Shown one piece after another: positions 10,305 to 32,000 of a stretch of 32,000 bases of DNA. Every line of letters starts with the position of its first letter. The stretch's first letter is position 1. The position numbers and the translations under genes were made by a program. Under the pieces are notes generated by a model. The model was not told where the DNA came from, searched no databases, and saw only the letters and a program-made list of their open reading frames with translations. The stretch comes from an uncultured archaeon (lineage in GTDB: Archaea > Asgardarchaeota > Thorarchaeia > Thorarchaeales > Thorarchaeaceae): the NCBI GenBank assembly GCA_964648855.1, contig CAZYLT010000008.1, positions 60,001-92,000 on the forward strand, in the 5' to 3' direction.

Positions 10305-11420
10305 ATGGCAGAACTCGTCATCACACACTGGGGACCACAAGGAAGACAGCGATATACAAGAGAATCGTCAGACGCCTCCCACATTAGTTTGAGAAATAGG
10401 TCGATAAAGAAAATAGACCTGTCAGGTTTGGCAGGCTGCAATCAGTTGAACCGACTTGACCTCAGCCATAATGTGATTGAGCATATTGACTTGACACCCT
10501 TAGCTACATGCCGCAACCTGCAAATCTTAGATATCTCTGCAAACAAACTACAGACTCTTGATTTGTACTCTCTCCAGAGAATATTCACCTTGAATTCGTT
10601 GGACCTTTCTTCAAATCCCCTACCATCACTTGATATTACACCTGTCTTTCCTAGAGCAGCTATATCCCTGAGTAGAGGTACAAAGGTAATCCTAGGTCTA
10701 ATCTACAGATACCTGCTCAAGCTGAACCACCTTTCTACGGTTACTCTCACTGATTCCTCTGATTCGTTGGAGTACTCGCCCAAAATTCATTGGGCCACAG
10801 TAGAGCAACAGGTAGATGATTACGGAGTGGCGAAAATATTGGCATATATCCGTGAGATGCTAGTTACAACAAAAGCTTCCGACCGGTTTCCTTTACAGCG
10901 GGGGCTCATGACTGCTTTTATCCTTGAGGAGCTTGGTGGATATGATGGCGACCCCAACAATCTGTTATCTCAAATCAATGCGCAAGATTCCTTTGAATCC
11001 GCGCGTGATGTTATATTGGATACTGCAGCTAAGCTGCTGATAGAACAGGTCAGAAATGAGGGGTCTACTTTGTTTCTTGACTCGGAGAGAATTGCTGATT
11101 CACGGGCGAGTTTGTTAACTCCCCATCTAGCTGAAAGAAGGAAACGAGAGATTTCTGAAGCTCCTGTTTTGAAACAGAAAGGTTCCTATGACCTCTCTGC
11201 TCTGGCACTCACCTTCTATGGGTTCGAGATCATTCGTGCATTGGGCTTGGGGCTAAAACCGGTAGATACGGGATTTGAACAACTCGATGACTCGCTCCGC
11301 GCTGCTGGTCTATGTATTAATGAAACGAACGATCCAACAGAATTGGATGCATTTAAGGCAAACTTCTCTAAGAGCTTGCAAACATATGTCTACAAGAAAA
11401 TTGAGTTTAGCCAGGGCTGA
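10305..11420 (+). CDS. Leucine-rich repeat protein with an unrecognised C-terminal domain
   Basis: About 4 LRRs (LxxLDLSxNxL), then a ~250-aa mainly helical region. Start placed at ATG 10305 after TGGTG; the ORF track's 10254 start overlaps the previous gene. Confidence 0.85.
   Translation: MAELVITHWGPQGRQRYTRESSDASHISLRNRSIKKIDLSGLAGCNQLNRLDLSHNVIEHIDLTPLATCRNLQILDISANKLQTLDLYSLQRIFTLNSLDLSSNPLPSLDITPVFPRAAISLSRGTKVILGLIYRYLLKLNHLSTVTLTDSSDSLEYSPKIHWATVEQQVDDYGVAKILAYIREMLVTTKASDRFPLQRGLMTAFILEELGGYDGDPNNLLSQINAQDSFESARDVILDTAAKLLIEQVRNEGSTLFLDSERIADSRASLLTPHLAERRKREISEAPVLKQKGSYDLSALALTFYGFEIIRALGLGLKPVDTGFEQLDDSLRAAGLCINETNDPTELDAFKANFSKSLQTYVYKKIEFSQG
10413..10645 (+). repeat. 24-aa leucine-rich repeats (protein level)
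   Basis: IDLSGLAGCNQLNRLDLSHNVIEH / IDLTPLATCRNLQILDISANKLQT / LDLYSLQRIFTLNSLDLSSNPLPS / LDITP. Confidence 0.85.
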
Positions 11421-12872: not shown

Positions 12873-13166
12873 AATTTCTGCACCGGGCTTTCACGAGGTG
12901 ATGATGACCCTGATTTAAGAGTAGTGCATTAGCATATGTGCCATATCCAGAAGACAAGAAAAAACTTCAATGCTAGCATACGGGTGCACGAAAGCGATAG
13001 AAGATCTATCAATAGAGTCCTTATTCGACATCTGTTTTGCATTTCGCTTAGTTGTAGCGAAACTGCTTTATGTCACACTTTATCAAGTGCACTATATCTC
13101 ATAGCAGAGATTTTGTTTGGAGCAAATCCGAATAAGAGCCAACCATAAATACGGAGACACAAGTTG

Positions 13167-14990
13167 ATGAGAGCATACCTAGATGCAAATTTCTTCATTA
13201 GCGGCTTCAGTGATAGACCAAAGGATGTATACACTGTTAAAGAAGCCGCAGACGCGCTGGATATTGAACTTTGGATCACCCGCCAAGTGTTCCAAGAATT
13301 AAGATGGTATTTGAGGCGCGAAGTAGAGAAGATAATAAAAATCGATGAAACTCTGAAAAAAGACATCAAGCAATTTATGGAAAGCATAAACCGTCCTGAA
13401 AGCTCTCTGCCGCAACCTAATGACATGTCTCTTATCCTGGCAGCAATGCGCGCGAAGAATTCCAAAGTTGTCACTAGCGACCTAAAATTGCTCAACACAA
13501 TTCAAGATTTCAAAAATATCAAAACCGAAGGGATAGTTGGCTCAGCCTTCATGCTTGAACTCATTGAGCAAATTGACTCTGAGAAGCTGAAAAAGGACCT
13601 GCGTGCCATAAGGGAGCGTATCTATACACAGGAAGTTCGTTACAGCATCAAAAGAAGTGGGTCCTATGATCCTGTCACTAGAATACGAATCATTGAGGAT
13701 CATGCCATGAGAGTTCTGCGTTCAATCAAGCGGCCTGCGGATACGCTTGACAAGGACCTCTCCAAGGGTCAACCACTATTTGTATTGGACTTCATTGAGG
13801 ACATTAAGGCTGGAATTCCAGATATGTTTGAGGATTTCCAAGAAGGGAAATACGATGTACTAGGCAATGAGATATCTGCTGTCCAAAATGAAATCGAACG
13901 TCTCTTGATTGTTTCAACGCTGACAGAAGACTCTGAAACCCATGAAAAACTCGTAGACCACGCCAATGATCTGACACTCTTTCTCTACTTCTTGGAGATG
14001 ATGTGTTACTTGTATAAAGGCACGAGGGAAGGTGTTGAGAAGGCACTAGAAGTAAGTGATGAAGCCTTTCGGTTACTCATGTTCACGGGTATAGCAGATG
14101 ATGCGCTCAAAGCATCAGTCTTCTTCGTCCGTATTGTGATTGCGCTAATCAGAGAGGATTACGATGAGATTGACTACTACTACAGCCTATATGACTCCAT
14201 GTTGAAGCGAACAAATCTTGAAGAGATGATGGAAACCTCAGAGGGTCTCTACGTTTCTATGCAAATCCTTCGCAAGTTTATGGGCGGATTTTCGTTAACA
14301 AAGACGAAGTTGGAATACCCAGAAGTTACAATAAAATTACTGAATGACATTGCCAAGTACTGCATCCAATTCGATGACTATGATAACGCATGGCAATTGT
14401 CAGTTAATGCCTACAAGATTGGAGCAGCCTACGGCAAAGAGGATGGAGCTCTATCCAGTTTCCTTAACCTGTATAAGATATCCTCATCATCCCACGACCG
14501 ACTTAAGCCTGCATTAGAAAAAATTGCAGAACATGCATTGAAGATGTTCGTGAAGAAGGGTTGGGATACGACTGAAATCACCCCTATTCTCAATGAGGTT
14601 CAAGGTAATGTGAAAGATGCCAAAGACCTTGATATACAGCTTCATGAAGAACCAGCTGATTTGGAGGAGCTGAGCCAAGAACTTCGAGGTTGGATGAATG
14701 TGTTGTCTGCTGAGAAGATAGATGACCAAGAATTGCTAATTGTCAGGAATGAGGATCTACAGATTAGAATCGGAATAGACGTATCAATTCATCATGAGAT
14801 AAAGGAACTCAAGTCTGGGTACAAAGTTGCCCTTACTCGTGGCGAATTCAAAGTTGAAGAGGCACCGCAAGAATACGTCAAGAATCATTCAGTTGTGCTA
14901 TTGATAACGCCTACCCAAGAGGCTGAAATCTCGTATGAGGGCGAACACGGATTCAGCTACCTAAAGGTTACTAGCCCTGAAGAAGCATAA
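13167..14990 (+). CDS. PIN-domain protein with a long TPR-like helical region and a C-terminal beta-rich domain
   Basis: PIN acidic residues in YLDAN, VFQEL, PNDMSL and VTSDLKL. TPR-like segments such as LLNDIAKYCIQFDDYDNAWQLSVNAYKI. GGAG RBS at 13153-13156. Confidence 0.75.
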   Translation: MRAYLDANFFISGFSDRPKDVYTVKEAADALDIELWITRQVFQELRWYLRREVEKIIKIDETLKKDIKQFMESINRPESSLPQPNDMSLILAAMRAKNSKVVTSDLKLLNTIQDFKNIKTEGIVGSAFMLELIEQIDSEKLKKDLRAIRERIYTQEVRYSIKRSGSYDPVTRIRIIEDHAMRVLRSIKRPADTLDKDLSKGQPLFVLDFIEDIKAGIPDMFEDFQEGKYDVLGNEISAVQNEIERLLIVSTLTEDSETHEKLVDHANDLTLFLYFLEMMCYLYKGTREGVEKALEVSDEAFRLLMFTGIADDALKASVFFVRIVIALIREDYDEIDYYYSLYDSMLKRTNLEEMMETSEGLYVSMQILRKFMGGFSLTKTKLEYPEVTIKLLNDIAKYCIQFDDYDNAWQLSVNAYKIGAAYGKEDGALSSFLNLYKISSSSHDRLKPALEKIAEHALKMFVKKGWDTTEITPILNEVQGNVKDAKDLDIQLHEEPADLEELSQELRGWMNVLSAEKIDDQELLIVRNEDLQIRIGIDVSIHHEIKELKSGYKVALTRGEFKVEEAPQEYVKNHSVVLLITPTQEAEISYEGEHGFSYLKVTSPEEA

Positions 14991-15916: not shown

Positions 15917-16008
15917 CGCAGGTGCGTAGCATCTTTACTGAACAAATAGGATTAGGCTTAGTGTTCAAATCTAGGTTTCACCGCCATATCATCCGGAGGA
16001 ACATCCCA

Positions 16009-19000
16009 ATGAAAAAATCAGGCTCAATCTATGTACTAGTTTCTATTATGGTCATTCTAATGCTTGGATCCTTCATGGTGCCATCTTATTCTTCTAGCTC
16101 CGGTGACCGAGACAATACGGCGGTCATCGGTGAAAGAATGGTGGATGTTGGCGGGGAGAAGATTCCACTTGCGCCTGATGAATCACTCTACGTTTACACA
16201 CTATCCCAAGCACCTGATACCTATTCCGGAGCTGCAACAGCTCAAAATGCTTCAGAACACGGAGTCCGCGTGGACTCGTTCAATGATGTTTCCCTGCAAT
16301 ACGACTCATCAACTAGCTCAACGTCCAGTGAAGTCGCTCAAGTTCCTATGGGGGCTCAATGGCAAAGTACAGAGCTGTTCGTGAATGTATCAAATCTGCA
16401 GGAAAATAGGACATGGTTGGAGAATCCTGGCTTTGATTCAACAGATAACTGGACTACAGGTACGGATGATGTTGGTATCTATTCAAACTCAATAACTTCA
16501 CAGATAACAAATGGATACGCTCAGTTCACTATGCTTGGTGAATACTCCAACAACTACTACAGATTCGATGAGGGTGATAGAGCATATGTTGAACAGGACA
16601 TATCGGTCAATAGGGGCGAAGTCACTTGGACGGGGGTATCCGTAGATTACTGGGTCTATGACGATTGGGGAAACCCGCCTATTGGCTTCTGGGAGTTATA
16701 TGTGCAAGTTGGAAGTGATGATGTTGTTTCAAACCATCTATGGGATATCCAATTCAGCGACGTCCAGAGTATCAGTACTTGGTATTCTAGCGGACTTGTT
16801 GAGGCCGATCACAACTTGATTGACCTGCCCAATCTAACAATTCAAGCCGGAATGCGTACAACCCGAACATTCGGTGCCAGGCCCCGTCTTTATCCTGAAG
16901 TCCGTCTGGATAATATCCGTGTCTTCATAAAAGCCAGAGCTACACCAACTGATGTTAACCTTCAGATGAATGGCTTAGACGTTCTTGACGTTGATAACGG
17001 AACTGATACGTTGTGGAGTTTGGGTCAAGTGACGCAGGACCCAACACTACCTTGGACTTCAAGTCCAGTAGATGCGAATTTCACTTGGACACCAACTCCC
17101 TCCCCTCCAAGTCCTGATATCGACATATTCGTGACATTCGATGCTGAAATCACACTCACTGCGGAAAAACTGAACAAACCCACTCTATATCAGGCCGAAG
17201 TCGGCAGTTACGGGGAACATTTTGAGGTTCAAAATGCCTCCCATGTGGACTGGTTGTCGTATTACTATGTTGCCGTGCCAAATGGCTATTCCGACCTCTT
17301 TCACTTCAATGTCACAAATCCTACCGGACGCATAGTTGATGCTGTTGGTGAACCTACAGAACCTGGTGAGAATTTCCCATATTGGAGTGTTGTCGATGGC
17401 TATCTGAACATTTCAGTCTATGAAGGCGTCACGGGTTCTAATCAAAATGGGTTCTGGAAGATTGATTCTCATTCGTCAAATATGATATCTGACCTTAGGA
17501 TGTTGTCTGGTGCAAGCTGGGAAACTACGTCGGTCTATCGAGCTGATAATACCATTCGGTTAAGGGCGCAACTCGATAGCACCTATTCGGGGTGTACTGT
17601 AACCTATTACCTCTACAATACGACCGGAGATATATGGACGACAACAACTGCAGTAGTAGATGGTTCTGGTTATGCTGAGAGTTCGGATATCATCCTTGAT
17701 GCAGTAGATGCAGAAGTTGGTCATTGGACTGTACAAGCAATAGTCAATGATTCTATTTCTGGAAGCCCAATTGATAATATTGGAATGTACTCTCGGAATT
17801 TCAGAATCCAACACTCTACGCAAATGAGCCTAACTTATCCAAAGGACTCGGAAAGCACATGGACGAAAAATCTGACACTCGGTCAGGAGATGCTCCTACA
17901 AGTTAGAGTAAACGATTCTGATAATGCTGATTTATTGCCTGGAGGGTCAACCACATATAACTGGACTACAGGCACACAGCCTCTAAACGACATGGGCACC
18001 GGTGAATATAGCGTCGTGCTAGAGACCTCTGACCTGCCAAGAAGAGGTAGTTATCACATTATCATCACATGGTCATTGCAGCATTATGACCCATTATCGA
18101 GAATATTCACAATCAATATTGTTGAAGAAACCTCTCTCTATTCTCCAGATGCTCCTAGTGTTGAAACTCCGCTAGGTTCCAATGCAACCATTGAAGTAGT
18201 ATTCAATGATCAAGATAATGCTGGAATAACCGATGCCACGATCATATGTAATTGGACAGATGGGCAATACTCCGTTAGCCCAGTGGCAGGTACCCCTGGT
18301 CATTATCTACTCAACCTATCTACATCTACAGCGACGATTGACACCTACGCGATTATCATTACTGCAATAGCCGATTATTATATCACATCTCAAACTACGG
18401 TATTCTTGGAGGTTAGACAGCTCTTCACCTCAGTTGCTGTATCTTCGAGCTATCTACCTTTGCCTGTAGGGACCCAAGGTTCCATAACACTGACCTATAC
18501 GGATACCGATCATAATGAACCGATAACAGGGGCTGCCAGCGCTATATCTTGCAATTGGTCTGATTACCATGCTAAAGGAGATTCGAATTACACCGTGACT
18601 GAAATAAGTCCGGGTGAATACAGAATTGACTTCTTCTCAGTGGAAACCGATTTCATAGGTACTCACCCTGTTAAATTTCAAGTGAGGAAATACGGCGCTC
18701 AAAATCATACATTCACAATAGAGGTTGATGTTCAGTCTCACCTGACGACATTTTCGTTGACAAATCCAATTGAGCCGACCGCCTATACAGGCACTATAAC
18801 AATTACAGTCAGTTATTATGACGTGACACTAGAAACAGGAATTGAGAACGGAACTGCTAACGGACATAACGTGCTAATTTACGTTGTAGCGCCGGAACTT
18901 CCGAGCATCCAATATGTGGTTTATAATGGCACGGTTCTTGGCGAATATATTATAGAGATTGCTGCGGACCAGTGGGGTTCTATCGGTCGGAAGGATCTTG

Positions 19001-22000
19001 AGATTTTCGCCAATTGGACAGGGTCAGTCGAGAAATATGGAAATGGAACCATCTCAACTAGTGTCCGAATATCTGACACACCAGCAACTTTGTTCATTGG
19101 CGATAATCCGGTTTCAACGCCATATGGAGAAAACATCACATTCACTGTTTTCTATTGGGATGTTGCGGCCGATACTGGCATCGTAAATTCAACCGGCCCT
19201 TACGCATTCAATGTGAGCATGTATGTCGTTGTATTGAGTAGTGGTCATGAGCTCAATACATCGTTGATTGTCGTGACGGAAATTGGTTCCGGAGAGTATG
19301 AAATCAAATTCAGTACCTACTATCTGTCAGGAATCACAACATGTGATTTACGAGTCTACGCAAACTGGACGAAAGGAGAATTGCCACTATATTCAAATGC
19401 ATCTCTCTCAGTAACTGTTCGAACAATATACCGTCAAACCTCGATTGAGTACACTCCACTGCCCATTGTTGCCTATGACGAACCTGTAAACTTCACATTC
19501 AGCTACAATGACGTTCTAAGTAGTTCAAGAATAGAAAACAGCTCTACCATAGAAATATCTGTTTCAGAAGATGGAGTGGTGCTGGACACGTACTACCTGG
19601 AAACAAGCGTACTTTTTGTCTTAAGTATCGATACCACCTATTGGGGAAACGTTGGGACATTCGAGTTTCATCTTAATGTAATCTGGAGTGGATCTCCCTT
19701 CTATCAAAATAGAACCGGAGTTGCAATAACCATAGAGCTGAGGTATAGGTACACTTCGCTTACTCATGGAAGCTATGACTCTGTTCAATATCGCAACAAT
19801 TTAACGCTGGACTTTTTCTATACAGACTTGGATGATAATTCCTTATCGGGAATGGATGGTTCTCAGCTTACACTTGATTCATGGTTGAGTGACTACTACA
19901 CGGTTCATGATAACGGTGATGGCACATATACCATTGAACTAAATACCACTGCCTTTGGATCACTTGGAGTCTATAGAGTAAATGCTACTATCATCTATGG
20001 CGGTAATCGCTTTGCTGCCAATGCCTCTGATTACTTTTATCTCACTGTGACCCGAAGACGTACCCAGTTAACCAGCGATTTACCCGACTTAGCCCCATTC
20101 CTGACACAGGCTAACATCACGATTCAGTATATTGATGATAACAATGGATTTGGCATCGATAATGCCAGTGTTTTCATCTCATCGGAAACCTCAGCTGAAA
20201 CCCTAGAAAAAGATGTCAATTATTGGATTGATTCTCTCGGTGACGGGAACTACAAAATACGGATTTCAACAGAAGCATTAGGGACATTTGGCTCCTATGC
20301 TATTGATATCATCGTGAACTATACTGGTACTCCGTTCTTTGCTCAGAAATCAACTACTGTTGATATTGAGGTTTCTCGGCGCCCACTTGAATTATCTGTG
20401 TCGGAATCACCACTTAATACTGCATATCTACAGAATGTTTCATTTGAGATTACAGTCATTGACTCTCTTGTCGAGGTTCTAGTCAGCATCAACAAGAGCC
20501 AACTTGTCTTGAAACACGGTTCAGATATTCTCTTACTGGATTCTGAATATGTTCTCACTGGTAGCTCAGGAGTGTACATTATCTCAATAAACTCAACAAT
20601 TCTGGTTTCTGAACTCGTTCAAGGTTATCCGCTATTTGTTGAGATTCAATGGGGCGATGAAGCTCCCTTCTATTCCAATGCGAGTGCATCCACTGAAGTT
20701 GCTATCACTGCACGGTTCACCCAAGCATCTATACTCTCAACACCGCCTGCATTCATCAATTTCAATGGAACTGCAATAATAGAATACACAGATTACCTCA
20801 GTGGCGATCCCATCACAGGAGCTCAGATTTCAGTTTCATGTGAGAATGTTTCTTCGTTTGGTCATTGGATAACAGATATGCAAGATGGAACGTATGAAAT
20901 CATCATAAACACAACCGATCTGAGCGAGTTGGGTAAATACATCTTCTTAGTGAATGTCACGTATTTGGGTACGCCATTCTATGCCAACTTGACTTCTATT
21001 CAGTTCAGCTTGACGGTGAATCCTGTTTCGACGACACTGACTCTGGATCTAGAACCCGGCAGTACGTACTTCACTGGTGATACGATTATTGTGAACATTT
21101 CATATACAGACATATCTCAAGGAATCGGGATAGAGTACGCGGCCGTTGGTACCGACTGGGGATTAGTAGTTGGGAATCCATATTCCTTAACAGAAATTGG
21201 AAACGGCTTATATCAGCTAACACTAGAAACATCAGGCCTATCCGCCCAATCGTATTCATTCTCAATAAACGCGTCCAAATACCTCCATGTTAACAGAACA
21301 GTGGCTGTGGAGTTGCTTCTCTCACCAACGCCTATCTCAATTGATTTCGATTTGACTCCAATCGACCCTGTTTGGGGAGATGAAATAGAGTTTGTAGCGA
21401 ACATTACGGATAGTCGCGATGACAGTGCTGTACTCGGTGGAAGTGTGAATATAACGCTGAGTGGCATTGTCTATGAGTTACTGGAATTAGGTGATGGTCT
21501 CTACGGGAGAAACATAACCTCGTCTGTAGTCAGCGCTGGTGAATACACAGTCACCGTTGCATTTGAGCTGGAAGACCATGAATCTAGAAGCCGTGACTTC
21601 TCAATCAGAATTGCAAAGGCAGCAGCAACTCTATCTCCGGATATTGCTTCATTAATAGCCGTCAATGGACAGAATTTGACAATAACCGCGGAGTATCTTG
21701 TAACCGAAAATGGCACCTCCATTGCAGTCGGCACCATCACCTTCAGTTGGACATATGGTCAAGGTACATTGAGTTGGAACGATACTCAGAATCAATACAT
21801 TGGACATTTTGTTGTATCAGACGTTCCTGCTGGAAATTATCTAATTGTTGTAAGTGCAAAGTCTGCGAATTACAAATCCCTCACTACTTCTCTAAACATA
21901 GAGATTCGTGAGGTGACAACTCAAATAGTATCTGTCGAAGACACAACAGTTGTTTCAGGCATTATTGGAGATGTAGTATCAATATACGTATATCTCAACA

Positions 22001-23775
22001 ATACTGACCTCTCCCTACCTGTTGTTGGTGCTACGCTTTCCTTCTCTATCAGTGATATGACCGGCAATCTAACCGAAACTAGTGACGGATACTACAGGGC
22101 CGATGTAAATACAACAGGCCTGGACCTCAGAACATGGACTCTTACTATCTTTGGGTCGAAGCCAGGCTACACTACGTCATCACTCGATTTTACTTTGGAC
22201 CTTGATCCAATCCCCACAAAGATATTGGTTGTGGGGGATGTCTTGCAAGAAGCCTATTATGGTGAAAATGTAACCCTCTATCTATTTCTCAATGATACCC
22301 ATAATGCTGTGGGTGTGTCCAACGCAACGAGCACATTCCAGCTCGAGGATACAGTGGGAATTCTCTATGAATTAGGAAATGGTAACTATTCGCTTGTTGT
22401 TAATACTAGTGTCGTTAGCGCAGGACTGATACCATATGATGTCACCATCACTCTTGCAAAGAGTAGGTACAAACAAGCACAAACTCAAGTCAAGCTCTTG
22501 GTCAATCCTATTAGTACTGAAGTTATGGGTACCCAAGAAAGGGTCGTTCCGGTTGGTGATGACTACTCGCTCATATTCACCTTCAATGATATGCTGAATG
22601 ACATACTAATAGATGACGCTTCTTCGAGTGCAATTTGGGAATTCGGAAGCCTTAGCTTGACCAATCTCGGAAATGGATCATACCGGTTTGGTCCTAACGA
22701 AACCAATCTTACTCGTCTTGAGATTCGAAATCAACCATATGTTGTTCGGATTATTCTCACGAAGGGCAATTACAGCACCGGACAACTTGTTGTGGAAATT
22801 ACAATTAGGTCTATTCTCACCGAGTTGCGGTGGGATGTACATCCCAGCGTAATATACTCAGGAGAGCCATTTTCGATTACGGTGACATATTGGGATTTGG
22901 ACCACAATACGGCTGTTATTGATGCATCGAATGCGACATCCATTATTACATCAGCGGGTCTTGGACTAACGCGGCTAGAAGATGAGGAAATCGATTATGG
23001 CAATGGAACCTATGTTTTCAAATTCGTACCTGGTCAACCTGCCCTCTACAACCTCGCAATAACTCTTGATAAGAGGGATTATCAGTCCAGCACTGTTTCA
23101 ATCCCCATCTATTCAGAGATTAGTCCAGAACAAGCGTTGTTGGTCCAGACATTCTTTAATGGTACTCTTATTCTCCTTGTTGTCGCTGCTTTAGCAGCTT
23201 TATACTTCAAAGTGCTGTCGGTTCCCAAGCTTCTTCGAAAACTCAGGTCGATGGTTTCAACCCTTGAAAAGGGAACAATTCCCGAGAGAGCAGATGTTAA
23301 TGATCGTAGAACGATGCTACTGAAAACCATGAACGACAACTTGGAACCATTAGGAATAAGGAAAGTCATGGGTGATGTAGCACCATCAACGCTGGATGTC
23401 AGCATTCTGGACGTTGAGGCACTTCTTGATGAGCTCGCGATTGTTATTGGCCTCACTGCAGATGACCTTACTGTCTTGCGAGATGACCTAGAACAGATGG
23501 CACCGAGTGAACGCGCCGGATTCATTAGTGAGGTGCTAAGACAAGAGAAGTCCCGACGTGCAAAAGAAATTGCAGAAACAGCGCGAGAAGAAGACCTTGT
23601 ATACGAGATGGCTCCTGGGAAGCTCACAGAAGAGGAACTGGATGACATCAGAAGCAAGCTCATGAAAATGGGAATTGAGAAGGACGAAGTGGAATTGATG
23701 GTTGAACAGGCACGCGGCTTGACAAAGCCCGAAATACAAGCGCTTTTGGACCAACTTGGAGGTGATGAAGAGTGA
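16009..23775 (+). CDS. Giant type-I membrane surface protein A (~2,588 aa): signal peptide, CBM-like head, 17 Ig-like repeats, TM, cytoplasmic tail
   Basis: GGAGGA RBS (15995-16000) before ATG 16009. MKK plus a hydrophobic N-terminus, T/S/V/I/Y-rich repeats with many N-x-S/T sequons, TM ~23152-23208 followed by a K/R-rich segment. Confidence 0.9.
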   Translation: MKKSGSIYVLVSIMVILMLGSFMVPSYSSSSGDRDNTAVIGERMVDVGGEKIPLAPDESLYVYTLSQAPDTYSGAATAQNASEHGVRVDSFNDVSLQYDSSTSSTSSEVAQVPMGAQWQSTELFVNVSNLQENRTWLENPGFDSTDNWTTGTDDVGIYSNSITSQITNGYAQFTMLGEYSNNYYRFDEGDRAYVEQDISVNRGEVTWTGVSVDYWVYDDWGNPPIGFWELYVQVGSDDVVSNHLWDIQFSDVQSISTWYSSGLVEADHNLIDLPNLTIQAGMRTTRTFGARPRLYPEVRLDNIRVFIKARATPTDVNLQMNGLDVLDVDNGTDTLWSLGQVTQDPTLPWTSSPVDANFTWTPTPSPPSPDIDIFVTFDAEITLTAEKLNKPTLYQAEVGSYGEHFEVQNASHVDWLSYYYVAVPNGYSDLFHFNVTNPTGRIVDAVGEPTEPGENFPYWSVVDGYLNISVYEGVTGSNQNGFWKIDSHSSNMISDLRMLSGASWETTSVYRADNTIRLRAQLDSTYSGCTVTYYLYNTTGDIWTTTTAVVDGSGYAESSDIILDAVDAEVGHWTVQAIVNDSISGSPIDNIGMYSRNFRIQHSTQMSLTYPKDSESTWTKNLTLGQEMLLQVRVNDSDNADLLPGGSTTYNWTTGTQPLNDMGTGEYSVVLETSDLPRRGSYHIIITWSLQHYDPLSRIFTINIVEETSLYSPDAPSVETPLGSNATIEVVFNDQDNAGITDATIICNWTDGQYSVSPVAGTPGHYLLNLSTSTATIDTYAIIITAIADYYITSQTTVFLEVRQLFTSVAVSSSYLPLPVGTQGSITLTYTDTDHNEPITGAASAISCNWSDYHAKGDSNYTVTEISPGEYRIDFFSVETDFIGTHPVKFQVRKYGAQNHTFTIEVDVQSHLTTFSLTNPIEPTAYTGTITITVSYYDVTLETGIENGTANGHNVLIYVVAPELPSIQYVVYNGTVLGEYIIEIAADQWGSIGRKDLEIFANWTGSVEKYGNGTISTSVRISDTPATLFIGDNPVSTPYGENITFTVFYWDVAADTGIVNSTGPYAFNVSMYVVVLSSGHELNTSLIVVTEIGSGEYEIKFSTYYLSGITTCDLRVYANWTKGELPLYSNASLSVTVRTIYRQTSIEYTPLPIVAYDEPVNFTFSYNDVLSSSRIENSSTIEISVSEDGVVLDTYYLETSVLFVLSIDTTYWGNVGTFEFHLNVIWSGSPFYQNRTGVAITIELRYRYTSLTHGSYDSVQYRNNLTLDFFYTDLDDNSLSGMDGSQLTLDSWLSDYYTVHDNGDGTYTIELNTTAFGSLGVYRVNATIIYGGNRFAANASDYFYLTVTRRRTQLTSDLPDLAPFLTQANITIQYIDDNNGFGIDNASVFISSETSAETLEKDVNYWIDSLGDGNYKIRISTEALGTFGSYAIDIIVNYTGTPFFAQKSTTVDIEVSRRPLELSVSESPLNTAYLQNVSFEITVIDSLVEVLVSINKSQLVLKHGSDILLLDSEYVLTGSSGVYIISINSTILVSELVQGYPLFVEIQWGDEAPFYSNASASTEVAITARFTQASILSTPPAFINFNGTAIIEYTDYLSGDPITGAQISVSCENVSSFGHWITDMQDGTYEIIINTTDLSELGKYIFLVNVTYLGTPFYANLTSIQFSLTVNPVSTTLTLDLEPGSTYFTGDTIIVNISYTDISQGIGIEYAAVGTDWGLVVGNPYSLTEIGNGLYQLTLETSGLSAQSYSFSINASKYLHVNRTVAVELLLSPTPISIDFDLTPIDPVWGDEIEFVANITDSRDDSAVLGGSVNITLSGIVYELLELGDGLYGRNITSSVVSAGEYTVTVAFELEDHESRSRDFSIRIAKAAATLSPDIASLIAVNGQNLTITAEYLVTENGTSIAVGTITFSWTYGQGTLSWNDTQNQYIGHFVVSDVPAGNYLIVVSAKSANYKSLTTSLNIEIREVTTQIVSVEDTTVVSGIIGDVVSIYVYLNNTDLSLPVVGATLSFSISDMTGNLTETSDGYYRADVNTTGLDLRTWTLTIFGSKPGYTTSSLDFTLDLDPIPTKILVVGDVLQEAYYGENVTLYLFLNDTHNAVGVSNATSTFQLEDTVGILYELGNGNYSLVVNTSVVSAGLIPYDVTITLAKSRYKQAQTQVKLLVNPISTEVMGTQERVVPVGDDYSLIFTFNDMLNDILIDDASSSAIWEFGSLSLTNLGNGSYRFGPNETNLTRLEIRNQPYVVRIILTKGNYSTGQLVVEITIRSILTELRWDVHPSVIYSGEPFSITVTYWDLDHNTAVIDASNATSIITSAGLGLTRLEDEEIDYGNGTYVFKFVPGQPALYNLAITLDKRDYQSSTVSIPIYSEISPEQALLVQTFFNGTLILLVVAALAALYFKVLSVPKLLRKLRSMVSTLEKGTIPERADVNDRRTMLLKTMNDNLEPLGIRKVMGDVAPSTLDVSILDVEALLDELAIVIGLTADDLTVLRDDLEQMAPSERAGFISEVLRQEKSRRAKEIAETAREEDLVYEMAPGKLTEEELDDIRSKLMKMGIEKDEVELMVEQARGLTKPEIQALLDQLGGDEE
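17812..23118 (+). repeat. 17 tandem ~95-115-aa Ig-like beta-sandwich repeats in protein A (protein level)
   Basis: Recurring pattern Y.D....I..A...(W)...E/D.G.G.Y...(N)T..L..G.Y...I.....Y, counted by eye. No nucleotide-level tandem identity was noticed. Confidence 0.8.
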
Positions 23776-26700
23776 ATAGGAAGGCACTTATCGTTTCATA
23801 TGTCCTTGCGGCAATACTAATACTGCCTATATTCAGCTCTATAGTGACCATTTCGGGACAAAGTGGTAATATGAGCGGACTTCCAAGCCATGATTTTACA
23901 GGAGACAAGGGGGATACGCCTCCGCAATTTGAAACCAACAAATACCCGACACTATCAGGAGCTTTATCCTCGTGGGAAGGCACTTCGTCGGGTCTACCTG
24001 TAAGCGAATATGGAAATAGAACTGATACATTCGATGACAATCAGATGATATACAGTAGTTCTAGCCAAACGACTACAAATACCTCAGTAGATATTCCTTT
24101 GGGTAATGGCTGGGAAGGTCACAACATCTTTCTATCCGTGAATGACCTGACCGAGAATCGAACATGGGTACAGGACCCCGACATGGAAAACTCACCTTCT
24201 TCATGGACGCTGACTGATGTTACTGGTGATGCCTCATGGCTTAGTGACGGACATGGAACTAATGACGATTCAGCGCAATTCAGCTATAATGGCGATCCCA
24301 ACGAGGGCAAAATAGCATACGTTTCACAAGACATGAGCGTCCCTCGTGGAGATGTTGTTTGGGCAGGATTACGTCTTGACTATTGGATTGATTCAGCATG
24401 GTCGGATGGAGATGGATTTGTAGCAATCTATGTGACTGTTGAAACCAGCAACTTCAACCAGCGAGTCTGGCAGAAATCATTCAATGATGTTGATCAAGCG
24501 CAAACATGGTTTGACAGCGGATTAATTGAGATCGATGACCTGACGCTGTTTGATCTTTCAGATGATGTCTACATTGAGGTTGGACTGTATAGTCAACAAA
24601 CAGTAAACTACAGTCCCGACCTCGACCCAGAGGCTCGAGTTGATAATGTTGAGCTTTACTTGAAAACCCTTGCAGCCCCAACTAATGTGAATCTGAAGGC
24701 GGAAGGCTACGACGTAAACAATTACACCGTTGGCGGAACGACTCTATATGGAATAGGCAATTTGTCATACACACCATCCAGTACTTGGACATCCAGTCCG
24801 GTTTCCATAGAGTTCAGCTGGACCCCCAATCCTCTTCCTCCAAGCCCGAATAGAACTATTCTGGTTGACTTCACTGCTACGACTGACCTTTATGCTCGAG
24901 CGAGCAATATGACTGTTTCAACTCAAGACCCGACGGCATACGGTGAAACGTTCCACGTTACAAACGCTACCGATGTGGAATATCAAACCTGGCACTACGC
25001 TGATATCCCCGATGGTTATGATAATAGATACGATTTCAATCTGACATTGCCAGAAGGGCGTGATGTAAACTATGTAGGCTCTCCCCTATTAACGACAGAA
25101 AACATAAGTACATGGAGCGAAGGCGAGTGGTGGGCAAGGATTCCTGCATATGACTATGCTGACAGGTGGGGCTACTGGCTCATTCGAAGCCGTGCACCAA
25201 ATGGGGTTCAAAACATCTTGATGCAACATCAAGGTACTGGAACAACTGCCCAGAGTATCGATATGAGGGCTAACGACCAGTCAAGCTTCATCACTGTGCA
25301 TGATTCTGCATTCGCAGGTCACATTGTGAACATAACCGTTTTTGACCCAACTGGGTTTCCGTGGTATTCTGAGCTATCCACTATCAATAGCACAGGCTAT
25401 GCCGAGACCTCGGCTCTTACTTTTGGTACAAACGCTAGTGCTGGGGGATGGCAGGTACAGGCAACTCTAAACAACAGTCTAAGCGGCAGCGCATGGAACA
25501 AAACCGGCTTTTTTGTGAGGGCATTTAACGTGATTCATGCTTCAACTGCGACCCTGCTCAGTCCTGCAGATGCCGTGTCCACTTGGATTGCCAATGTCAC
25601 CTATCCGGATTTGTTCCTGGTGCGGATTTTGGTAAACGATACGGATATTCCTGGAGTCACTGTGCCAGGAGGCAGCATGACATACAATTGGACAGACGGG
25701 ATAAATGAGTTTGGGGACAATGGCGATGGCGAATATATCGTCACATTGGACTCGACCGATTTGGGTGCGAAAGGGCAGTATACTATCGACATTCAATGGA
25801 ATCATCCCAATTTTGATTCAATTACTGAAACCCTTACAGTGAACCTAAATCTGGATGGGAGTCTTGTAATTGTTTCTCCTGATTCACCTTCACAAGATGG
25901 TCCGATTGGAGATAATCAGACATTCAGAATCCGATTCGAGGACTACTTCGGACCTGGGATTGATGATGGACAACTCTCAACGAACTGGAGCAATCCATAC
26001 TATATCACTGAAGTCAGTGGAAGCCCTGGCACTTTCGATATCGCCTTCGCCACAACTGGTATGGAACTCGATGAATACGTTGTGAATCTAACTGCCACAG
26101 CGGATTTCATTCTTCCTCAAAGCCGTCTTCTCTATGTTACGGTAAGAGAACTCTATACCAAAGCAACATATCTACAAAACGTTCTGGATATTCCAGTTGG
26201 CGAGGCACGGTCATTTACTATAGAATGGTCAGATGTAGACCATGACGAACCCATGACTGGGATGAATAACTCAATTATATCGAACTGGAGCCTCAACCAC
26301 GTACAAGGTGACATGAATTACACCGTTGAAGAAGTCAGTCCTGGGTCCTACAATGTGACTATTTACACCGTTGACAGTGACACATTAGCAACGTATCCCG
26401 TACGATTCGATTTGACTGGATATCAAATACAAAATCAGACTTTTGTCATTGATGTGGTCGTCAAAGAGCACAAGACCGTGTTCCTACTCGATGAGCCTGT
26501 TCAACAGACTGATCATGGCAATGATATTATCATCCTTGTATTCTTTGAGGACACTGACTTGGATATTGGTGTTTCAAATGATACCGGCGACATCATCATC
26601 ACTGTGGAAACTCCCGAATTGCCTTCTGTCACATTCTCAGTAACCGACTCGCTTCTCGGCACCGGGCATTACAATATCTCCATAGATAGTACACAATGGT

Positions 26701-29700
26701 CTACCATAGGGTGGAAAAATCTCACAATTAGTATTGATTCACTATCTGGGAAATATGAATCAAAGGCAATCAATACAAGGGTCAGATTGATCGGGCGCCG
26801 GACGGATCTCTATCTTGAGGACGCTCCGGTGGCGGTGAACTATCTTCAGAACTTCTCATTCAGTATTGTATATCTTGATGCCGTGAATTTATCTAAGATA
26901 TCGAATTCTTCTGAGAATGTCATTCTCATAGTGACTGCTTTAGAACAAGACAATCCTGCTGTCCAGAACGATTTCATGATCTGGGAATCCGTAACTGAAC
27001 CAGGTCTTTACTACTTCGCTTTGAATAGTTCCCGATTGCAGGGTCTTGGTACCTTTAGTTTTGAGATATTCTTCGGATGGCGGAGTGCTACTGCCCCGCT
27101 TTATGAAAATCAGAGTCTCACAATAAACCTTCTGACTCTCAGTCGCCCAACTTACCTAGATACTAACCCTGTTCCATCAACAGCGTATGGTGAAACGACT
27201 ACTCTAGAGTTCAAATTCATTGATTCCCTCAGTACTATGGTTATTGAAAACTCAAGCAGTCTCGAAGTGTCAATCAATGAGGTAACAGTGATTTGGACCG
27301 TTTCATATAGCACTGCAAGTCAGACATTCTTCGTAACAATCGACACCGAATCTCTGGGTGATGTTGGTGATTTCACGCTTCATCTCAATGTCACATGGAT
27401 AGGAACACCATATTACAACTCGATACAAAGCAAAGAATTCTCAGTTACAGTTACGTTGCGACCTACACAACTGACTCATAATCCATTTATGCCAGGTCAG
27501 TATGCAAGCAACATCACTATCGACTTCCAATACACGGATTTACTGTCGGGCAGTTCCGATGGCATGACAGGAATCCTATCCTTCAATATCACGGGGTCAT
27601 ATTATGACGTCGAAGACCTTGGGCAAGGAGAGTATAGGGTTACCCTAGACACATCTTTCAATGGCACTGTGGGTCAATTTACAATCAATGCCTCAATATC
27701 ATACTCTGGTGGATATTATGAGGCTGACGCAGTGGACATTTTTACTTTGACGGTTTCCACAAGAAATACTCAGCTAGGATACGAGAGCCCCGATGAAACA
27801 GCATATCTTGAAAATTTCACTATCGTTGTCGGCTATACCGATGACTCATCGGGTGAGGGTATAAGCGACGCATCTATAATTGTGACATCAGATCCTCTGA
27901 TTCTTGTTCTTAACACAGATTATTGGGTTTCCGAAACCTCCCCGGGCGAATATACAATCCTATTGAACAGCTCATCATTGGGCGCTCCTGGCGACTACTC
28001 GCTGAATGTGACTGCATCGAAGTCCGGTGAACCCTTCTATGCCAGTGTCGTGAAGAGTATAAATGCCCGTGTCATAGAAAGACCAACTCAAACTCTCATA
28101 ACCAAGACACCGGGTAGCGTACCCTTTCTGGAGAACATAACAATTCGATTCAAGTTCGAGGACTTTCTCACAAGCGAACTAATCGATATTGACCAATCAT
28201 ATATCATATTGTCACATGGGGACGGTGAAACCGTCATCCCCTCTACTTCATACATCTTGACCCAGTATTCAGACTACTATGAGATAGAATTCAACTCAAC
28301 TCTTCTCAATGATTCCGTGCTTGTATCTGGGCACACGATTAAAATCTTCGTCAACAGAAGCAGCATTCTCCCCTACTACTCAGCTAGGTCAAAAGCGGTT
28401 CTTGCTAGCACCATCGAACGACCCACGCAGATACAATTCCCGCTAATACAAGATACGCCTCTGGGCGACAATATTACTATAGAGCTGAGCTATATCGACT
28501 ACTTGTCGGATAAAGGCATCGAAGGTGCAGAACTAGCTGTCAGCTCTAGTAATTTGACCTCCTTTGTGAATTACACAATTGAATTGGGAGATGGTTTGTA
28601 CCGTCTGTTAATACCAAGCGGGCAGTTCGGACAGACTGGCAAGTTATATTTCGAGGTCACATTCAGCAATGATGGCATTCCATTTTACGCATCTAGGACT
28701 GCAAGAAACATCCCTGCAACAATTCGCGTCATCTTTTCGTCAATCTCTTACGAAACACCTCCTGCAGGCGTTATTCCTATTGGAGATCCATTCCGCGTTA
28801 ATGTAACTTATACAGATACCGACCACGAAGTAGGTATAGAGGGTGCAACTATCTCTACCGATTGGACCGACCTTTACGGACATAGTTACACCGTATTAGA
28901 GTTCTCAGAGGGTCGCTACCAAGTAGTGTTGAATACAACGGGATTGATTGCACAAGAATATACCTTCACTATCGCTGCAACACTTCCGTTCTACGAAGAA
29001 AGCGAAGCTAGCCCCACTATTCAGCCTGGTGCCCCCACCGTTCAGATAAACTTGCAGAAGTCCACGTACTATTCTGACTGGGGTCAGATGAAGATGGTAA
29101 GCTTCACTGTCACAGACTCCTACTATGGCACCCTCCTTTCTGGAATGACTGCAACTGTATTGCTCAATGATACATTGTATGACTGCATCGATGCAGGAAA
29201 TGGGACATATTACGTATATCTGAATACTTCCCAAGTAAGCTACGGAGTTTACAATCCCCTGATTACGGTTTCTAGACAGTACTATCAGACAAGACAGCGT
29301 GAGTTTACCCTTGTGATTTACAAAGCAACAGGGGTGATTCTTCCAGAAACTTCATCGATTCAAATTGTACGAGAAACAGTATCTTCATTGTGGATTTATC
29401 TCAATGATACTACCAACAATGAACCTGTTTCTGACGCAACTGTCTATATGATCTGGAATAATACGATAATTCCATTGAGTGCAAATGGTACTGCAGGATT
29501 CTACGAGGGGTCGCTCAATGTTTCGGGATTCTCAATTAGCACTTATGATTTGGAGATATACGCTACTGCCGGTAATCATGAATTTCTCAGCATATCTGTG
29601 GATGTAATCGTGACTCCTATTCCAACTAGTATACTTGTACAGGAAGGTTCAACATCTCTATCAGTGATATACGGCGATATTCTTGGAATCTATGTCGAGT

Positions 29701-31445
29701 ATAATGATACCTACTATGGTGGCTATCTTGATGGTGCAAACGTTTCATTTGTACTGGGAGGCTATACTTCCTCAATGGAACAACTTCCGGACGGCCGATA
29801 CTACGGCCAGATAAATAGCTCGCTCTTTTCGGCGCAAACCTTGTATCTAAGGGTGATCGCTCGAAAGGCCGGGTATGCTCAGGCATCCAGAACTCAACCA
29901 TTCAATATTTTGGCTACTCCTACAGAAACTACTGCAGGTGTATTGACAAACGATGCATATAGAGGAGATACTGTAAATTACACAATCTTCTTGAATAATA
30001 CACACACTAATTCCCCAATACTGGGCGCCGATGTTGACATCGAATGGGCGGGCGACACAGGAACCGCATATGACTTGCAAAATGGGAGTTATGTCATTTC
30101 TATTTTCGTTAATAATTCGGTTCCCAGACTCTATGACGTTTCAATCTCAATTATAAAGCTGAACTACCAAAGCAGTTCCATTACGGTTGGGCTGCTTGTG
30201 AAGCCAACTGATGCTTTCATAGATACAATATCTCAAATCGAAGTTCCTGTAAACGATACTGCAACGGTCATTGTGAACCTCGTCAATCAATTTACCAATG
30301 AAGTGGTTGCTGACATCAATGGTCTAGCAATTTGGGAAACGCTGGGAAGCAGCGAGTTGATTCCTCTTGCAAACGGTAGTTACTCCTTCTCAGTTCCTGG
30401 TGACCTGCCTATAGGTCATTATCGTGTCGCATTGGCATTCTCAACAAATCTATACAGAGTTCCATCACACGAAATACTTGTCAACGTGCGACAGGTATAT
30501 ACAGACCTAATCTACAATCGAACTCAAATCGATGCGTACCCTGGCGCGCCGGTTACAATTCGTATTACCTATCTAGATACAGACCACGATACCGGCATAA
30601 CAGATGTAATTCCAACTGTGAGCGTCACAGAAGGCGAAATAGTATACTACCCTGACAGACTCACAGACTACGATAATGGAACCTACGAACTGTACTTCGA
30701 GATTTTGCAGGCTTATACGATGTATATCAATGTGCAATTTGCTAAGAATGAATATCAGACTCAATCTGTGGAATATACTGTTTTCTCAGATTTGACTTCT
30801 GCACAACAAGCCCAACAGACTGCAATTGTCGGAGGCGGTACATCCCTGATGATAATTGCCATCCTCGTAGTGCTATATGTCAGGGTGTGGAGCATTCCAA
30901 AGCTTGTTCGGAAGTTGAATAAGATGATCAAGGCACTCTCAAAGGGCAAAGTTCCTGATCCTGCTGATGTACCTTCTAGGCAAGCAACTGTCTTGACGGC
31001 AGTCAATGAAGAGATTAAGTCGCTAGCCATAAAGAAGACCGCGGATGAAGTGGCCGAGATACCAATCGATATGCGAGCCCCCGAAGTGAACGAACTGCTT
31101 GCTAGACTCGTAGAAATCACAGCCCTGAGTGAGGACGAGATCGAAGCATTTAGACGTGACCTGTCTCGAATGAAAGCCAGTGAGCGTCCCGGATTCTTAA
31201 AGGAGGTCATAGAGCAGGAGGAAGCTCGCCGAGCTGACGAGCTTGCTGAGAAAGAAGTACCCAGTGACGCAGCACCCGAGGAATCTCTTGAGCAAAGACC
31301 CGAGGATATGGAGGATTTGCGGTCAAAGCTTCTCAAGAAGGGTCTGCCTAAGGATGAGATAGACTTGATTCTGGAAGAGGCCAAAGGATTGTCAAAGGCA
31401 GATATCGCAGCTTTGCTTGAGAGTCTTGGACTAGACTGGGACTAG
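23772..31445 (+). CDS. Giant type-I membrane surface protein B (2,557 aa), full-length paralog of A
   Basis: GTG start overlaps the TGA of gene A (GTGA), with a GGAGGTGA RBS at 23758-23765. Same domain order as A. TM ~30822-30881. Confidence 0.9.
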   Translation: MNRKALIVSYVLAAILILPIFSSIVTISGQSGNMSGLPSHDFTGDKGDTPPQFETNKYPTLSGALSSWEGTSSGLPVSEYGNRTDTFDDNQMIYSSSSQTTTNTSVDIPLGNGWEGHNIFLSVNDLTENRTWVQDPDMENSPSSWTLTDVTGDASWLSDGHGTNDDSAQFSYNGDPNEGKIAYVSQDMSVPRGDVVWAGLRLDYWIDSAWSDGDGFVAIYVTVETSNFNQRVWQKSFNDVDQAQTWFDSGLIEIDDLTLFDLSDDVYIEVGLYSQQTVNYSPDLDPEARVDNVELYLKTLAAPTNVNLKAEGYDVNNYTVGGTTLYGIGNLSYTPSSTWTSSPVSIEFSWTPNPLPPSPNRTILVDFTATTDLYARASNMTVSTQDPTAYGETFHVTNATDVEYQTWHYADIPDGYDNRYDFNLTLPEGRDVNYVGSPLLTTENISTWSEGEWWARIPAYDYADRWGYWLIRSRAPNGVQNILMQHQGTGTTAQSIDMRANDQSSFITVHDSAFAGHIVNITVFDPTGFPWYSELSTINSTGYAETSALTFGTNASAGGWQVQATLNNSLSGSAWNKTGFFVRAFNVIHASTATLLSPADAVSTWIANVTYPDLFLVRILVNDTDIPGVTVPGGSMTYNWTDGINEFGDNGDGEYIVTLDSTDLGAKGQYTIDIQWNHPNFDSITETLTVNLNLDGSLVIVSPDSPSQDGPIGDNQTFRIRFEDYFGPGIDDGQLSTNWSNPYYITEVSGSPGTFDIAFATTGMELDEYVVNLTATADFILPQSRLLYVTVRELYTKATYLQNVLDIPVGEARSFTIEWSDVDHDEPMTGMNNSIISNWSLNHVQGDMNYTVEEVSPGSYNVTIYTVDSDTLATYPVRFDLTGYQIQNQTFVIDVVVKEHKTVFLLDEPVQQTDHGNDIIILVFFEDTDLDIGVSNDTGDIIITVETPELPSVTFSVTDSLLGTGHYNISIDSTQWSTIGWKNLTISIDSLSGKYESKAINTRVRLIGRRTDLYLEDAPVAVNYLQNFSFSIVYLDAVNLSKISNSSENVILIVTALEQDNPAVQNDFMIWESVTEPGLYYFALNSSRLQGLGTFSFEIFFGWRSATAPLYENQSLTINLLTLSRPTYLDTNPVPSTAYGETTTLEFKFIDSLSTMVIENSSSLEVSINEVTVIWTVSYSTASQTFFVTIDTESLGDVGDFTLHLNVTWIGTPYYNSIQSKEFSVTVTLRPTQLTHNPFMPGQYASNITIDFQYTDLLSGSSDGMTGILSFNITGSYYDVEDLGQGEYRVTLDTSFNGTVGQFTINASISYSGGYYEADAVDIFTLTVSTRNTQLGYESPDETAYLENFTIVVGYTDDSSGEGISDASIIVTSDPLILVLNTDYWVSETSPGEYTILLNSSSLGAPGDYSLNVTASKSGEPFYASVVKSINARVIERPTQTLITKTPGSVPFLENITIRFKFEDFLTSELIDIDQSYIILSHGDGETVIPSTSYILTQYSDYYEIEFNSTLLNDSVLVSGHTIKIFVNRSSILPYYSARSKAVLASTIERPTQIQFPLIQDTPLGDNITIELSYIDYLSDKGIEGAELAVSSSNLTSFVNYTIELGDGLYRLLIPSGQFGQTGKLYFEVTFSNDGIPFYASRTARNIPATIRVIFSSISYETPPAGVIPIGDPFRVNVTYTDTDHEVGIEGATISTDWTDLYGHSYTVLEFSEGRYQVVLNTTGLIAQEYTFTIAATLPFYEESEASPTIQPGAPTVQINLQKSTYYSDWGQMKMVSFTVTDSYYGTLLSGMTATVLLNDTLYDCIDAGNGTYYVYLNTSQVSYGVYNPLITVSRQYYQTRQREFTLVIYKATGVILPETSSIQIVRETVSSLWIYLNDTTNNEPVSDATVYMIWNNTIIPLSANGTAGFYEGSLNVSGFSISTYDLEIYATAGNHEFLSISVDVIVTPIPTSILVQEGSTSLSVIYGDILGIYVEYNDTYYGGYLDGANVSFVLGGYTSSMEQLPDGRYYGQINSSLFSAQTLYLRVIARKAGYAQASRTQPFNILATPTETTAGVLTNDAYRGDTVNYTIFLNNTHTNSPILGADVDIEWAGDTGTAYDLQNGSYVISIFVNNSVPRLYDVSISIIKLNYQSSSITVGLLVKPTDAFIDTISQIEVPVNDTATVIVNLVNQFTNEVVADINGLAIWETLGSSELIPLANGSYSFSVPGDLPIGHYRVALAFSTNLYRVPSHEILVNVRQVYTDLIYNRTQIDAYPGAPVTIRITYLDTDHDTGITDVIPTVSVTEGEIVYYPDRLTDYDNGTYELYFEILQAYTMYINVQFAKNEYQTQSVEYTVFSDLTSAQQAQQTAIVGGGTSLMIIAILVVLYVRVWSIPKLVRKLNKMIKALSKGKVPDPADVPSRQATVLTAVNEEIKSLAIKKTADEVAEIPIDMRAPEVNELLARLVEITALSEDEIEAFRRDLSRMKASERPGFLKEVIEQEEARRADELAEKEVPSDAAPEESLEQRPEDMEDLRSKLLKKGLPKDEIDLILEEAKGLSKADIAALLESLGLDWD
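25536..30790 (+). repeat. 17 tandem Ig-like repeats in protein B (protein level)
   Basis: Same consensus as in A and collinear with A repeat by repeat. Confidence 0.8.
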
Positions 31446-31482: not shown

Positions 31483-32000
31483 TCAGTCAAAGGTTGTTTC
31501 AATCTCATCAAGTAAGTCTGAGTGTCTGTCGAAATACTTCCTCGCGGGCTCAAGCATCTCAATAAGATATTCACTCACCGCCTTTTTCACATCAAGCGGG
31601 TGCAATTCTCCAGAAGTATATGCGTTTTCAAACTCGGAGACTGTTGAGAACTCAACGTCGCCTCCAAATTTCTTTTTTCGTGGGATCACTATTTTCTCAA
31701 CCCGTGGAAAAATGATATACCTGACTGTAGATGTGATGGCATTATCTTGAAGGCCTTCAGCGGGACAATAAGCCTTCTTGATTGTCGACCTTATTTCTTC
31801 TGGGCTATCGGTTACTCTAATGTGAGACAAGGCGTCACTTGCGGACATTTTTGCTCCTCCACCCCGAAGAGACGGAAGCAATGGCATGAATATGTACGCT
31901 CCCTTCTTCCCTCCCACATCTTCAAGGAGCTCTCGACCAAGCATGTAGATATTCCTTTGATCTATTCCTCCAACAGTAACATCTGCATCCAAATACTTGA
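31483..32000 (-). CDS. tyrS: Tyrosine--tRNA ligase, archaeal/eukaryotic type; C-terminal part only, 5' end outside the window
   Basis: GGIDQR, PLLPSL..KMSAS (KMSKS loop), IKKAYCP, KFGG and LHPLDVK. The frame stays open to base 32000. Confidence 0.93.
   Translation of the reverse strand, partial: KYLDADVTVGGIDQRNIYMLGRELLEDVGGKKGAYIFMPLLPSLRGGGAKMSASDALSHIRVTDSPEEIRSTIKKAYCPAEGLQDNAITSTVRYIIFPRVEKIVIPRKKKFGGDVEFSTVSEFENAYTSGELHPLDVKKAVSEYLIEMLEPARKYFDRHSDLLDEIETTFD

Follow-up and report, generated by a model that had tools for sequence, protein, structure and literature searches.

The 32,000-nucleotide stretch of DNA analyzed here, referred to as the window, covers positions 60,001 to 92,000 of the forward strand of contig CAZYLT010000008.1 (assembly GCA_964648855.1), from an uncultured archaeon of the family Thorarchaeaceae in the Asgardarchaeota, and contains two tandem giant open reading frames (ORFs) on the plus strand, here called A and B (Table 1). 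Both encode putative single-pass surface glycoproteins and are laid out alike, with a signal-like hydrophobic N-terminus, a huge ectodomain, one transmembrane (TM) helix and a C-terminal tail, and they share 32% identity over 2600 amino acids (aa). This work deals with the tails, which comprise 188 aa in A (23209-23775) and 187 aa in B (30882-31445), nearly equal lengths that had already been noted in an original prediction made from the sequence alone, together with the proposal that each tail carries a duplicated 29-aa helical motif. All results are computational. The reading favored here, with chances judged slightly better than even, is that the tail is a folded, unannotated, all-helical domain containing an old duplication of a three-helix unit (the N and C modules), and that these small bundles, held near the membrane, bind a partner or pair A with B.

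The giant genes A and B

The ectodomains give weak Pfam signals of Ig-like or filamin-like type, and in an alignment of C-terminal fragments of relatives the ectodomain part weakly matches the Ig domains of bacterial S-layer proteins and invasins. N-x-S/T sequons number 73 in the ectodomain of A, 72 in that of B and 0 in either tail. The tails would therefore be cytoplasmic, as we infer from the positive-inside rule, given the basic residues that follow the TM helix, and from the contrast of no sequon in the tail with 73 outside. Tails A and B are 41% identical to each other.

The two genes are tightly joined, the GTG start codon of B overlapping the TGA stop codon of A (GTGA at 23772-23775), with a GGAGGTGA site located 7-14 nt upstream of the B start. 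This ribosome-binding-like site of B falls within the last codons of tail A, which encode its G-G-D residues (23758-23775). Since both GGAGGTGA and the start of B are embedded in the end of tail A, the conserved 'GG' that ends the A-type tails of relatives may reflect the translation signal of the downstream gene rather than a function of the tail.

Predicted fold of the tail

Tail A is predicted to be folded rather than disordered, with a mean predicted local distance difference test score (pLDDT) of 86.1 in an AlphaFold2 (AF2) model based on a 31-sequence alignment, and the model has nine helices that include two three-helix units, in agreement with the small helical bundles originally envisaged. 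The module helices have block pLDDT values of 84-96, and each unit, with three consecutive helices packing up-down-up over ~45-55 aa, fits the generic three-helix bundle, which is a fold class and not a family. When the N part was modelled alone by AF2, the same helices were obtained as in the whole tail. The relative placement of the tail parts is uncertain because the predicted template modelling score (pTM) is 0.45-0.48.

From the membrane inward, the tail would thus consist of a basic juxtamembrane helix directly behind the TM helix, a second helix, the N module, a charged helix with a linker, and the C module, which is acidic. The juxtamembrane segment is the best conserved stretch between the tails of Thorarchaeota (Thor) and Hermodarchaeota (Hermod), and the N module carries the invariant polar residues of the tail family in the 31-sequence alignment, D93, M97, S100, E101, F105, E108, V109, Q112, E113 and R116. 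Helix 3 of the N module runs on as the charged helix, spanning residues 99-132 in the AF2 model, and a second Thor subgroup has 50-60 aa more in the linker region.

The original prediction rested on four 29-aa segments, A1 and A2 in tail A and B1 and B2 in tail B, whose coordinates and sequences proved exact on translation. The helix that it placed before each segment, as well as the charged helix and linker between the copies, fit the AF2 helices. The repeat unit itself has to be redrawn: it is not 29 aa long but a three-helix module of ~46-50 aa, of which the 29-aa segments form helices 2 and 3.

Table 1. Coordinates of features in and next to the window (window positions; residue numbers count from the start of each tail)
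Feature	Position	Strand	Remarks
Giant gene A	15922..23775	+	2617-aa ORF; likely start is the Met 29 codons in
TM helix of A	23152..23208	+	~19 hydrophobic residues, basic residues directly after
Juxtamembrane part of tail A	23221..23352	+	basic amphipathic helix (residues 5-20), K-G-x-I-P loop, second helix (33-48)
N module of tail A	23404..23556	+	residues 66-116; helices 69-80, 84-95, 99-116; A1 (23449-23535) is helices 2-3
Charged continuation of helix 3 (to ~132) and short low-confidence linker (~132-140)	23557..23619	+	
C module of tail A	23620..23760	+	residues 138-184; helices 141-153, 158-168, 173-183; A2 (23671-23757) is helices 2-3
Giant gene B	23772..31445	+	2557 aa; same architecture as A
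N module of tail B	31077..31229	+	residues 66-116; contains B1 (31122-31208)
C module of tail B	31293..31430	+	residues 138-183; contains B2 (31341-31427)
Downstream conserved gene set	31483-31998 and ~6 kb past window end	- (31483-31998)	L008, L010, L012 and others compared

Searches against known families

None of the collections searched holds a recognizable relative of the tail. In Pfam, hmmscan of both tails at E<=10 returned SAS4, DUF1664, VIT1, RecX_HTH1, Pex14_N and EF-hand_8, all far below the cut-offs, while NCBIfam gave sub-threshold noise. A profile search of the PDB by sequence matched the Ig-like part of the ectodomain alone (S-layer proteins and invasin) and left the tail unmatched, the ESM Atlas returned no usable match for the tail, and a literature search found no description of this tail. 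SHOCT and UBA-like modules were considered and rejected, being absent from Pfam at E<=10, with nothing but noise in NCBIfam.

On the structural side, the N and C modules both align to the same regions of solved three-helix bundles, namely a KIX domain (2k0n), 9e2g_0X and the TrmJ C-terminal domain (3ilk/5gra), and the top VIA structure matches include XD and KIX domains. The original prediction had been reminded of MgtE-N/FliG helical repeats, and the idea that the modules are divergent repeats of this type is hardly credible: apart from the loose visual resemblance, the one trace of FliG (3usy_B) is its rank 40 in the Foldseek list (E 6.5, probability 0.02, TMq 0.15); the top 50 VIA rows do not include it, and at E<=10 Pfam gives no MgtE_N or FliG match for either tail.

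Distribution and modularity of the tail

A profile built from the two tails and searched against 1.84 billion cluster representatives matched 112 of them, 100 at E<=1e-10, so that the tail is conserved in homologs. Apart from a few short odd records, which were set aside, the matched proteins reach 5,543 aa in length and carry the match at their C-terminal end. In the members of this family the tail stands directly behind the single TM helix of a giant repeat ectodomain, and begins with the basic juxtamembrane motif, followed by the N module with its S-E-R...F..E....Q signature, seen in the Thor alignment and in Hermod tails too. Of the 400 Asgard genomes sampled, those with the tail comprise 80/85 of the family of the window, the one genome of its sister family (1/1) and 18 of the 19 Hermodarchaeota; the remaining Asgard families sampled have none.

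Nearly every Thor and Hermod genome has 2-8 matches to the tail profile, located on genes for giant surface proteins, some genomes having only 1, and the family expands by tandem duplication. A 90%-identical pair is found in 'Candidatus Thorarchaeota archaeon TEKIR_14'. In the tree, A-type and B-type tails form separate starred clades (support 100/99 and 99/99); the label groups were set from the sequences themselves, and the clade support is independent of the labels. As these clades are separate and well supported, the A/B pair is old, each member having kept its own tail. In the genome of the window, a six-frame scan with a hidden Markov model (HMM) found the modules confined to three giant ORFs, A, B and one on contig C5, and found no stand-alone module. 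The third of these ORFs (5062 aa, contig C5 ~57381-72566; L005, L006) belongs to the long-linker subgroup and has no adjoining paralog. Elsewhere, one Thor genome has four tail-bearing giant genes in tandem (G371, contig C22, 6003-30108).

A local domain analysis of the homologs indicates that the two ends of the tail behave differently. The first ~120 residues occur once per tail, and the C module, which makes up the last ~50 residues, occurs once in the subgroup of the window, once after the longer linker in the second subgroup, in 3-4 tandem copies in P0044, P0045, P0050, P0077, P0097, P0105, P0106 and P0109, and is seemingly lacking in P0089 and P0116. In Hermodarchaeota single helix units are still undergoing duplication; two of their tails (L028 and L033) carry near-exact 15-aa helix units of the L-[S/T]-E-E-E-R type, back to back at the C-terminus.

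Some records depart from this organization. In P0107 (341 aa), a soluble-looking protein without a giant ectodomain, ~190 unrelated residues precede the N part (profile positions 8-150 of the tail), and this protein may represent a relative of the N domain that is free in the cytoplasm. In short metagenomic proteins, tail fragments are also found fused to a receiver-domain-like N-terminus (P0040), to a MoaB/MogA-like motif (P0104) and to other unrelated sequence (P0108), and these fusions are probably chimeras of assembly or gene calling. P0110 (182 aa) has a RodZ-like, HTH-looking N-terminus and one TM helix, followed by an A-type C module.

A probable old duplication within the tail

That the motif is present in both paralogs is readily confirmed, with 13/29 identities between A1 and B1 (BLOSUM62 score 66) and 15/29 between A2 and B2 (85). 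Its duplication within each tail, the central claim of the original prediction, does not emerge from the window alone and gains support from the profile of the Thor family and from the Hermod homologs.

On the Thor profile, none of the 8,645 ungapped 29-mer self-pairs outscores the register originally proposed (offset 74, start residue 81), and offset 57 ranks second. In the second half of the original gapless alignment, N-module helix 3 and C-module helix 3 have no similarity in this profile (z 0.5). A scan with 14-mers revealed five helix-start units, at residues 63, 81, 138, 155 and 170, which match one another (each pairwise match ranking among the best ~1% of 13,040 pairs, z 2.6-4.9), and a unit at residue 97, in N-module helix 3, which matches none of them. 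At least four of these units fit h-[S/T]-x-x-[D/E]-h, the unit at 155 having E at the cap position, and the helix starts assigned by DSSP at 84, 141, 158 and 173 coincide with the motif. The h-[S/T]-x-x-[D/E]-h pattern is the classical hydrophobic staple and capping box of helix N-termini. A helix-start signal of this kind, on most helices, would add a shorter 14-aa periodicity to the longer repeat.

The Hermod tails provide the bridge. In the register of the original prediction, ungapped Smith-Waterman scores between their N and C modules are 73 against a null of 25.6±4.7 in L032, 52 against 24.4±5.1 in L030 and 42 against 24.2±4.2 in L034, and the likeness spans all three helices. An HMM of the Hermod N module detected the C module in 11/11 distinct tails (best i-E 8.6e-9), and HHalign aligned the Hermod N and C modules without gaps over 46 columns (93%, z 11.4 against shuffled columns). 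The Hermod C module in turn aligned with the Thor C module (73%, z 6.8, 45 of 46 columns) and with the Thor N module (58%, z 7.0, 47 columns). Hermod N against Thor N served as an orthologous calibrator (41%, z 5.8, 46 columns); the homology of these two is known because the full Hermod and Thor tails match at E 1e-7 to 1e-11, and the links that carry the proposed register are therefore as strong as a link between known homologs.

Several results weigh against the favored reading. In the window, A1 and A2 share 3/29 identities (BLOSUM62 score 19) and B1 and B2 5/29 (23), which is at chance level: 89% of shuffled versions of tail A and 70% of those of tail B contain an equally good ungapped 29-mer self-match, and gapped local alignment of the N half with the C half gives P 0.16 (A) and 0.14 (B), the best such alignment of tail B falling in the proposed register. 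When Thor N was aligned directly with Thor C by HHalign (74%, score 24.8; nulls 10.0±2.0 with shuffled columns and 9.5 reversed), the register was one helix off, placing N helices 2-3 on C helices 1-2, and HMMER picks the same shifted register in P0050 and P0077. This preference implies that part of the signal is the generic helix-start pattern, present in five of the six helices. Finally, the HHalign links to the Thor modules are moderate (58-73%) and concern short acidic helices.

From such results it can be argued that there was no true duplication, and that the likeness is convergent, arising from generic staple and capping-box helix starts combined with hydrophobic residues spaced at i, i+3/4 and i+7, which every helix of this acidic amphipathic tail would share, so that any pair of helices would align with any other pair. 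The chance-level statistics of the window speak for this view, two competing registers do score alike, and the mutual matches of the five 14-aa units, with N-module helix 3 left out, as well as their coincidence with DSSP helix starts, are in keeping with it. Convergence is nonetheless considered unlikely, since the gapless alignment of the Hermod N module with the C module extends over 39-54 aa and takes in loop residues (z ~5-10, with the i-E given above), reversed profiles, in which the amphipathic pattern is kept, score 8-11 compared with 24-34 observed, and the C module has demonstrably been copied in tandem in relatives. The shifted Thor match reflects the common helix-start signal, and its summed posterior (19 of 29 columns, or 23 of 45) is lower than that of the links in the proposed register (31-35 of 45-47 columns).

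Homology of the C module to the N module is therefore clear in Hermodarchaeota, and in the Thor proteins of the window it is reached through the Hermod bridge alone (58-73%), with the shifted register competing. We conclude from these alignments that a three-helix module of ~46-50 aa was probably duplicated before the split of Thor- and Hermodarchaeota, or else in parallel at the same place. The two copies would have drifted past pairwise recognition in the proteins of the window, and some Thor relatives would later have raised the number of C modules to 3-4. The case exemplifies how a duplication that is invisible within one genome can be recovered via a sister lineage.

Possible roles of the tail

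Under the favored reading of the tail as a duplicated docking or pairing domain, the three-helix bundles would be held near the inner face of the membrane, where they may either take up an amphipathic segment from a partner in the cytoplasm or join the co-translated tails of A and B to each other, and the giant ectodomain would thereby be coupled to something inside the cell. This function is one that we infer from several pointers to a specific binding surface, namely helix 3 of the N module, on which S100, E101, E108, Q112, E113 and R116 are polar and invariant, the strongly conserved basic juxtamembrane helix common to Thor and Hermod, and the acidic C module with its flexible linker and variable copy number, together with the separate conservation of A-type and B-type tails. 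Two further points go the other way: the context of P0110 would place a C module outside the cell, and, in the 10 genomes compared, the conserved neighbors of the gene pair suggest no gene for a cytoplasmic partner. P0110 may be a chimeric assembly.

Alternatively, the main task of the tails could be to hold A and B together as a pair, or to gather copies into clusters, in which case the modules would be oligomerization elements and not docks for a separate partner. The GTGA overlap and the GGAGGTGA site upstream of B suggest coupled synthesis, the tandem pair has been retained across many genera, and the two tail types form individually conserved clades; three-helix bundles, moreover, commonly complete four-helix bundles with a partner helix. 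A role confined to pairing is somewhat unlikely, with an appreciable chance of being right, as the third giant gene with such a tail, on contig C5, is solitary and the number of matches ranges from 1 in some genomes up to 8 in others.

Another possibility is a passive anchor or spacer, made of a stop-transfer segment, membrane-surface helices and a charged stalk that stabilize the insertion of a very large glycoprotein, with no specific partner. The best conserved part of the tail across Thor and Hermod is indeed its basic amphipathic juxtamembrane helix, and the model, with a pTM of 0.45-0.48, gives no confident packing on the bundle for the helices that precede residue 66. Against a passive role, which is regarded as distinctly unlikely, stand the same invariant polar residues of N-module helix 3, the varying copy number of the C module, and the 41% identity of the paralogous tails compared with 32% over the whole length. 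All three point to selection that acted on a surface and not on bulk properties.

As a rule, the surface proteins of archaea extend no further than the membrane anchor, and here nearly every Thor and Hermod genome encodes a conserved, folded domain of ~190 aa, putatively cytoplasmic, without a match in Pfam, NCBIfam or the PDB. Its two modules of ~50 aa offer a small and defined target for asking whether these Asgard lineages couple their surface to cytoplasmic machinery, and the tail is amenable to study without a cultured organism.

Genomic neighborhood

Conserved neighbors were compared in 10 genomes. Downstream of B, 8-9 of the 10 share genes for a Trp/Tyr-tRNA synthetase, an LPG_synthase_TM-type membrane protein, a PHP phosphoesterase, a UbiA prenyltransferase, a DUF362 protein and a metallophosphoesterase, a set that may belong to a lipid-linked glycan or lipid pathway. 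The upstream genes vary. In the window, A is preceded by a 388-aa leucine-rich-repeat (LRR) protein (10254-11420) and by a 608-aa protein with an N-terminal PIN domain (13164-14990), and the LRR gene with a neighboring CoA-ligase-like gene is found upstream again in 4/9 other upstream flanks compared.

Comparison with known systems

In integrins and cadherins, an extensive ectodomain of repeats is joined through one TM helix to a tail that is conserved and cytoplasmic; most such tails are short or disordered until bound by partners such as talin and catenin. The architecture of A and B is similar, with the genes paired, and the resemblance is one of analogy only, without homology. Extending this analogy, A and B could assemble into a heteromer that, in Thor- and Hermodarchaeota only, provides integrin-like outside-in coupling. 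Its duplicated modules would recruit a component of the cytoskeleton or of the membrane-remodelling machinery (Asgard actin regulators, ESCRT or small GTPases), and the variants with 3-4 C modules would then tune the strength of the link; such a device is a speculative and improbable proposal.

Tandem, mutually homologous giant genes have been described in metagenome-assembled genomes of Thorarchaeota (Wu et al. 2022, PMC8813620, Extended Data Fig. 7), and these very probably belong to the same gene family as A and B. They were reported there to be distantly related to the Heimdall 'Aloposon' giant genes, and the passages retrieved from that paper do not describe a cytoplasmic tail, a tail domain or an internal duplication.

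Like archaeal S-layer proteins and PGF-CTERM/archaeosortase-anchored proteins, A and B have glycosylated Ig-like repeat ectodomains, but those proteins end a few residues past the anchor, whereas in A and B ~188 folded residues follow the TM helix. The KIX domain, the XD of paramyxovirus phosphoprotein, the staphylococcal protein A domains and the TrmJ C-terminal domain are, like the modules described here, small three-helix bundles, and they bind peptides; there is no sequence relationship (2-22% identity), and the context differs, the bundles here being part of the membrane-tethered tail of an archaeal surface protein. The fold class is thus ordinary, and what is new is the family, its restriction to particular lineages, and where it sits in giant archaeal glycoproteins, just past the anchor.

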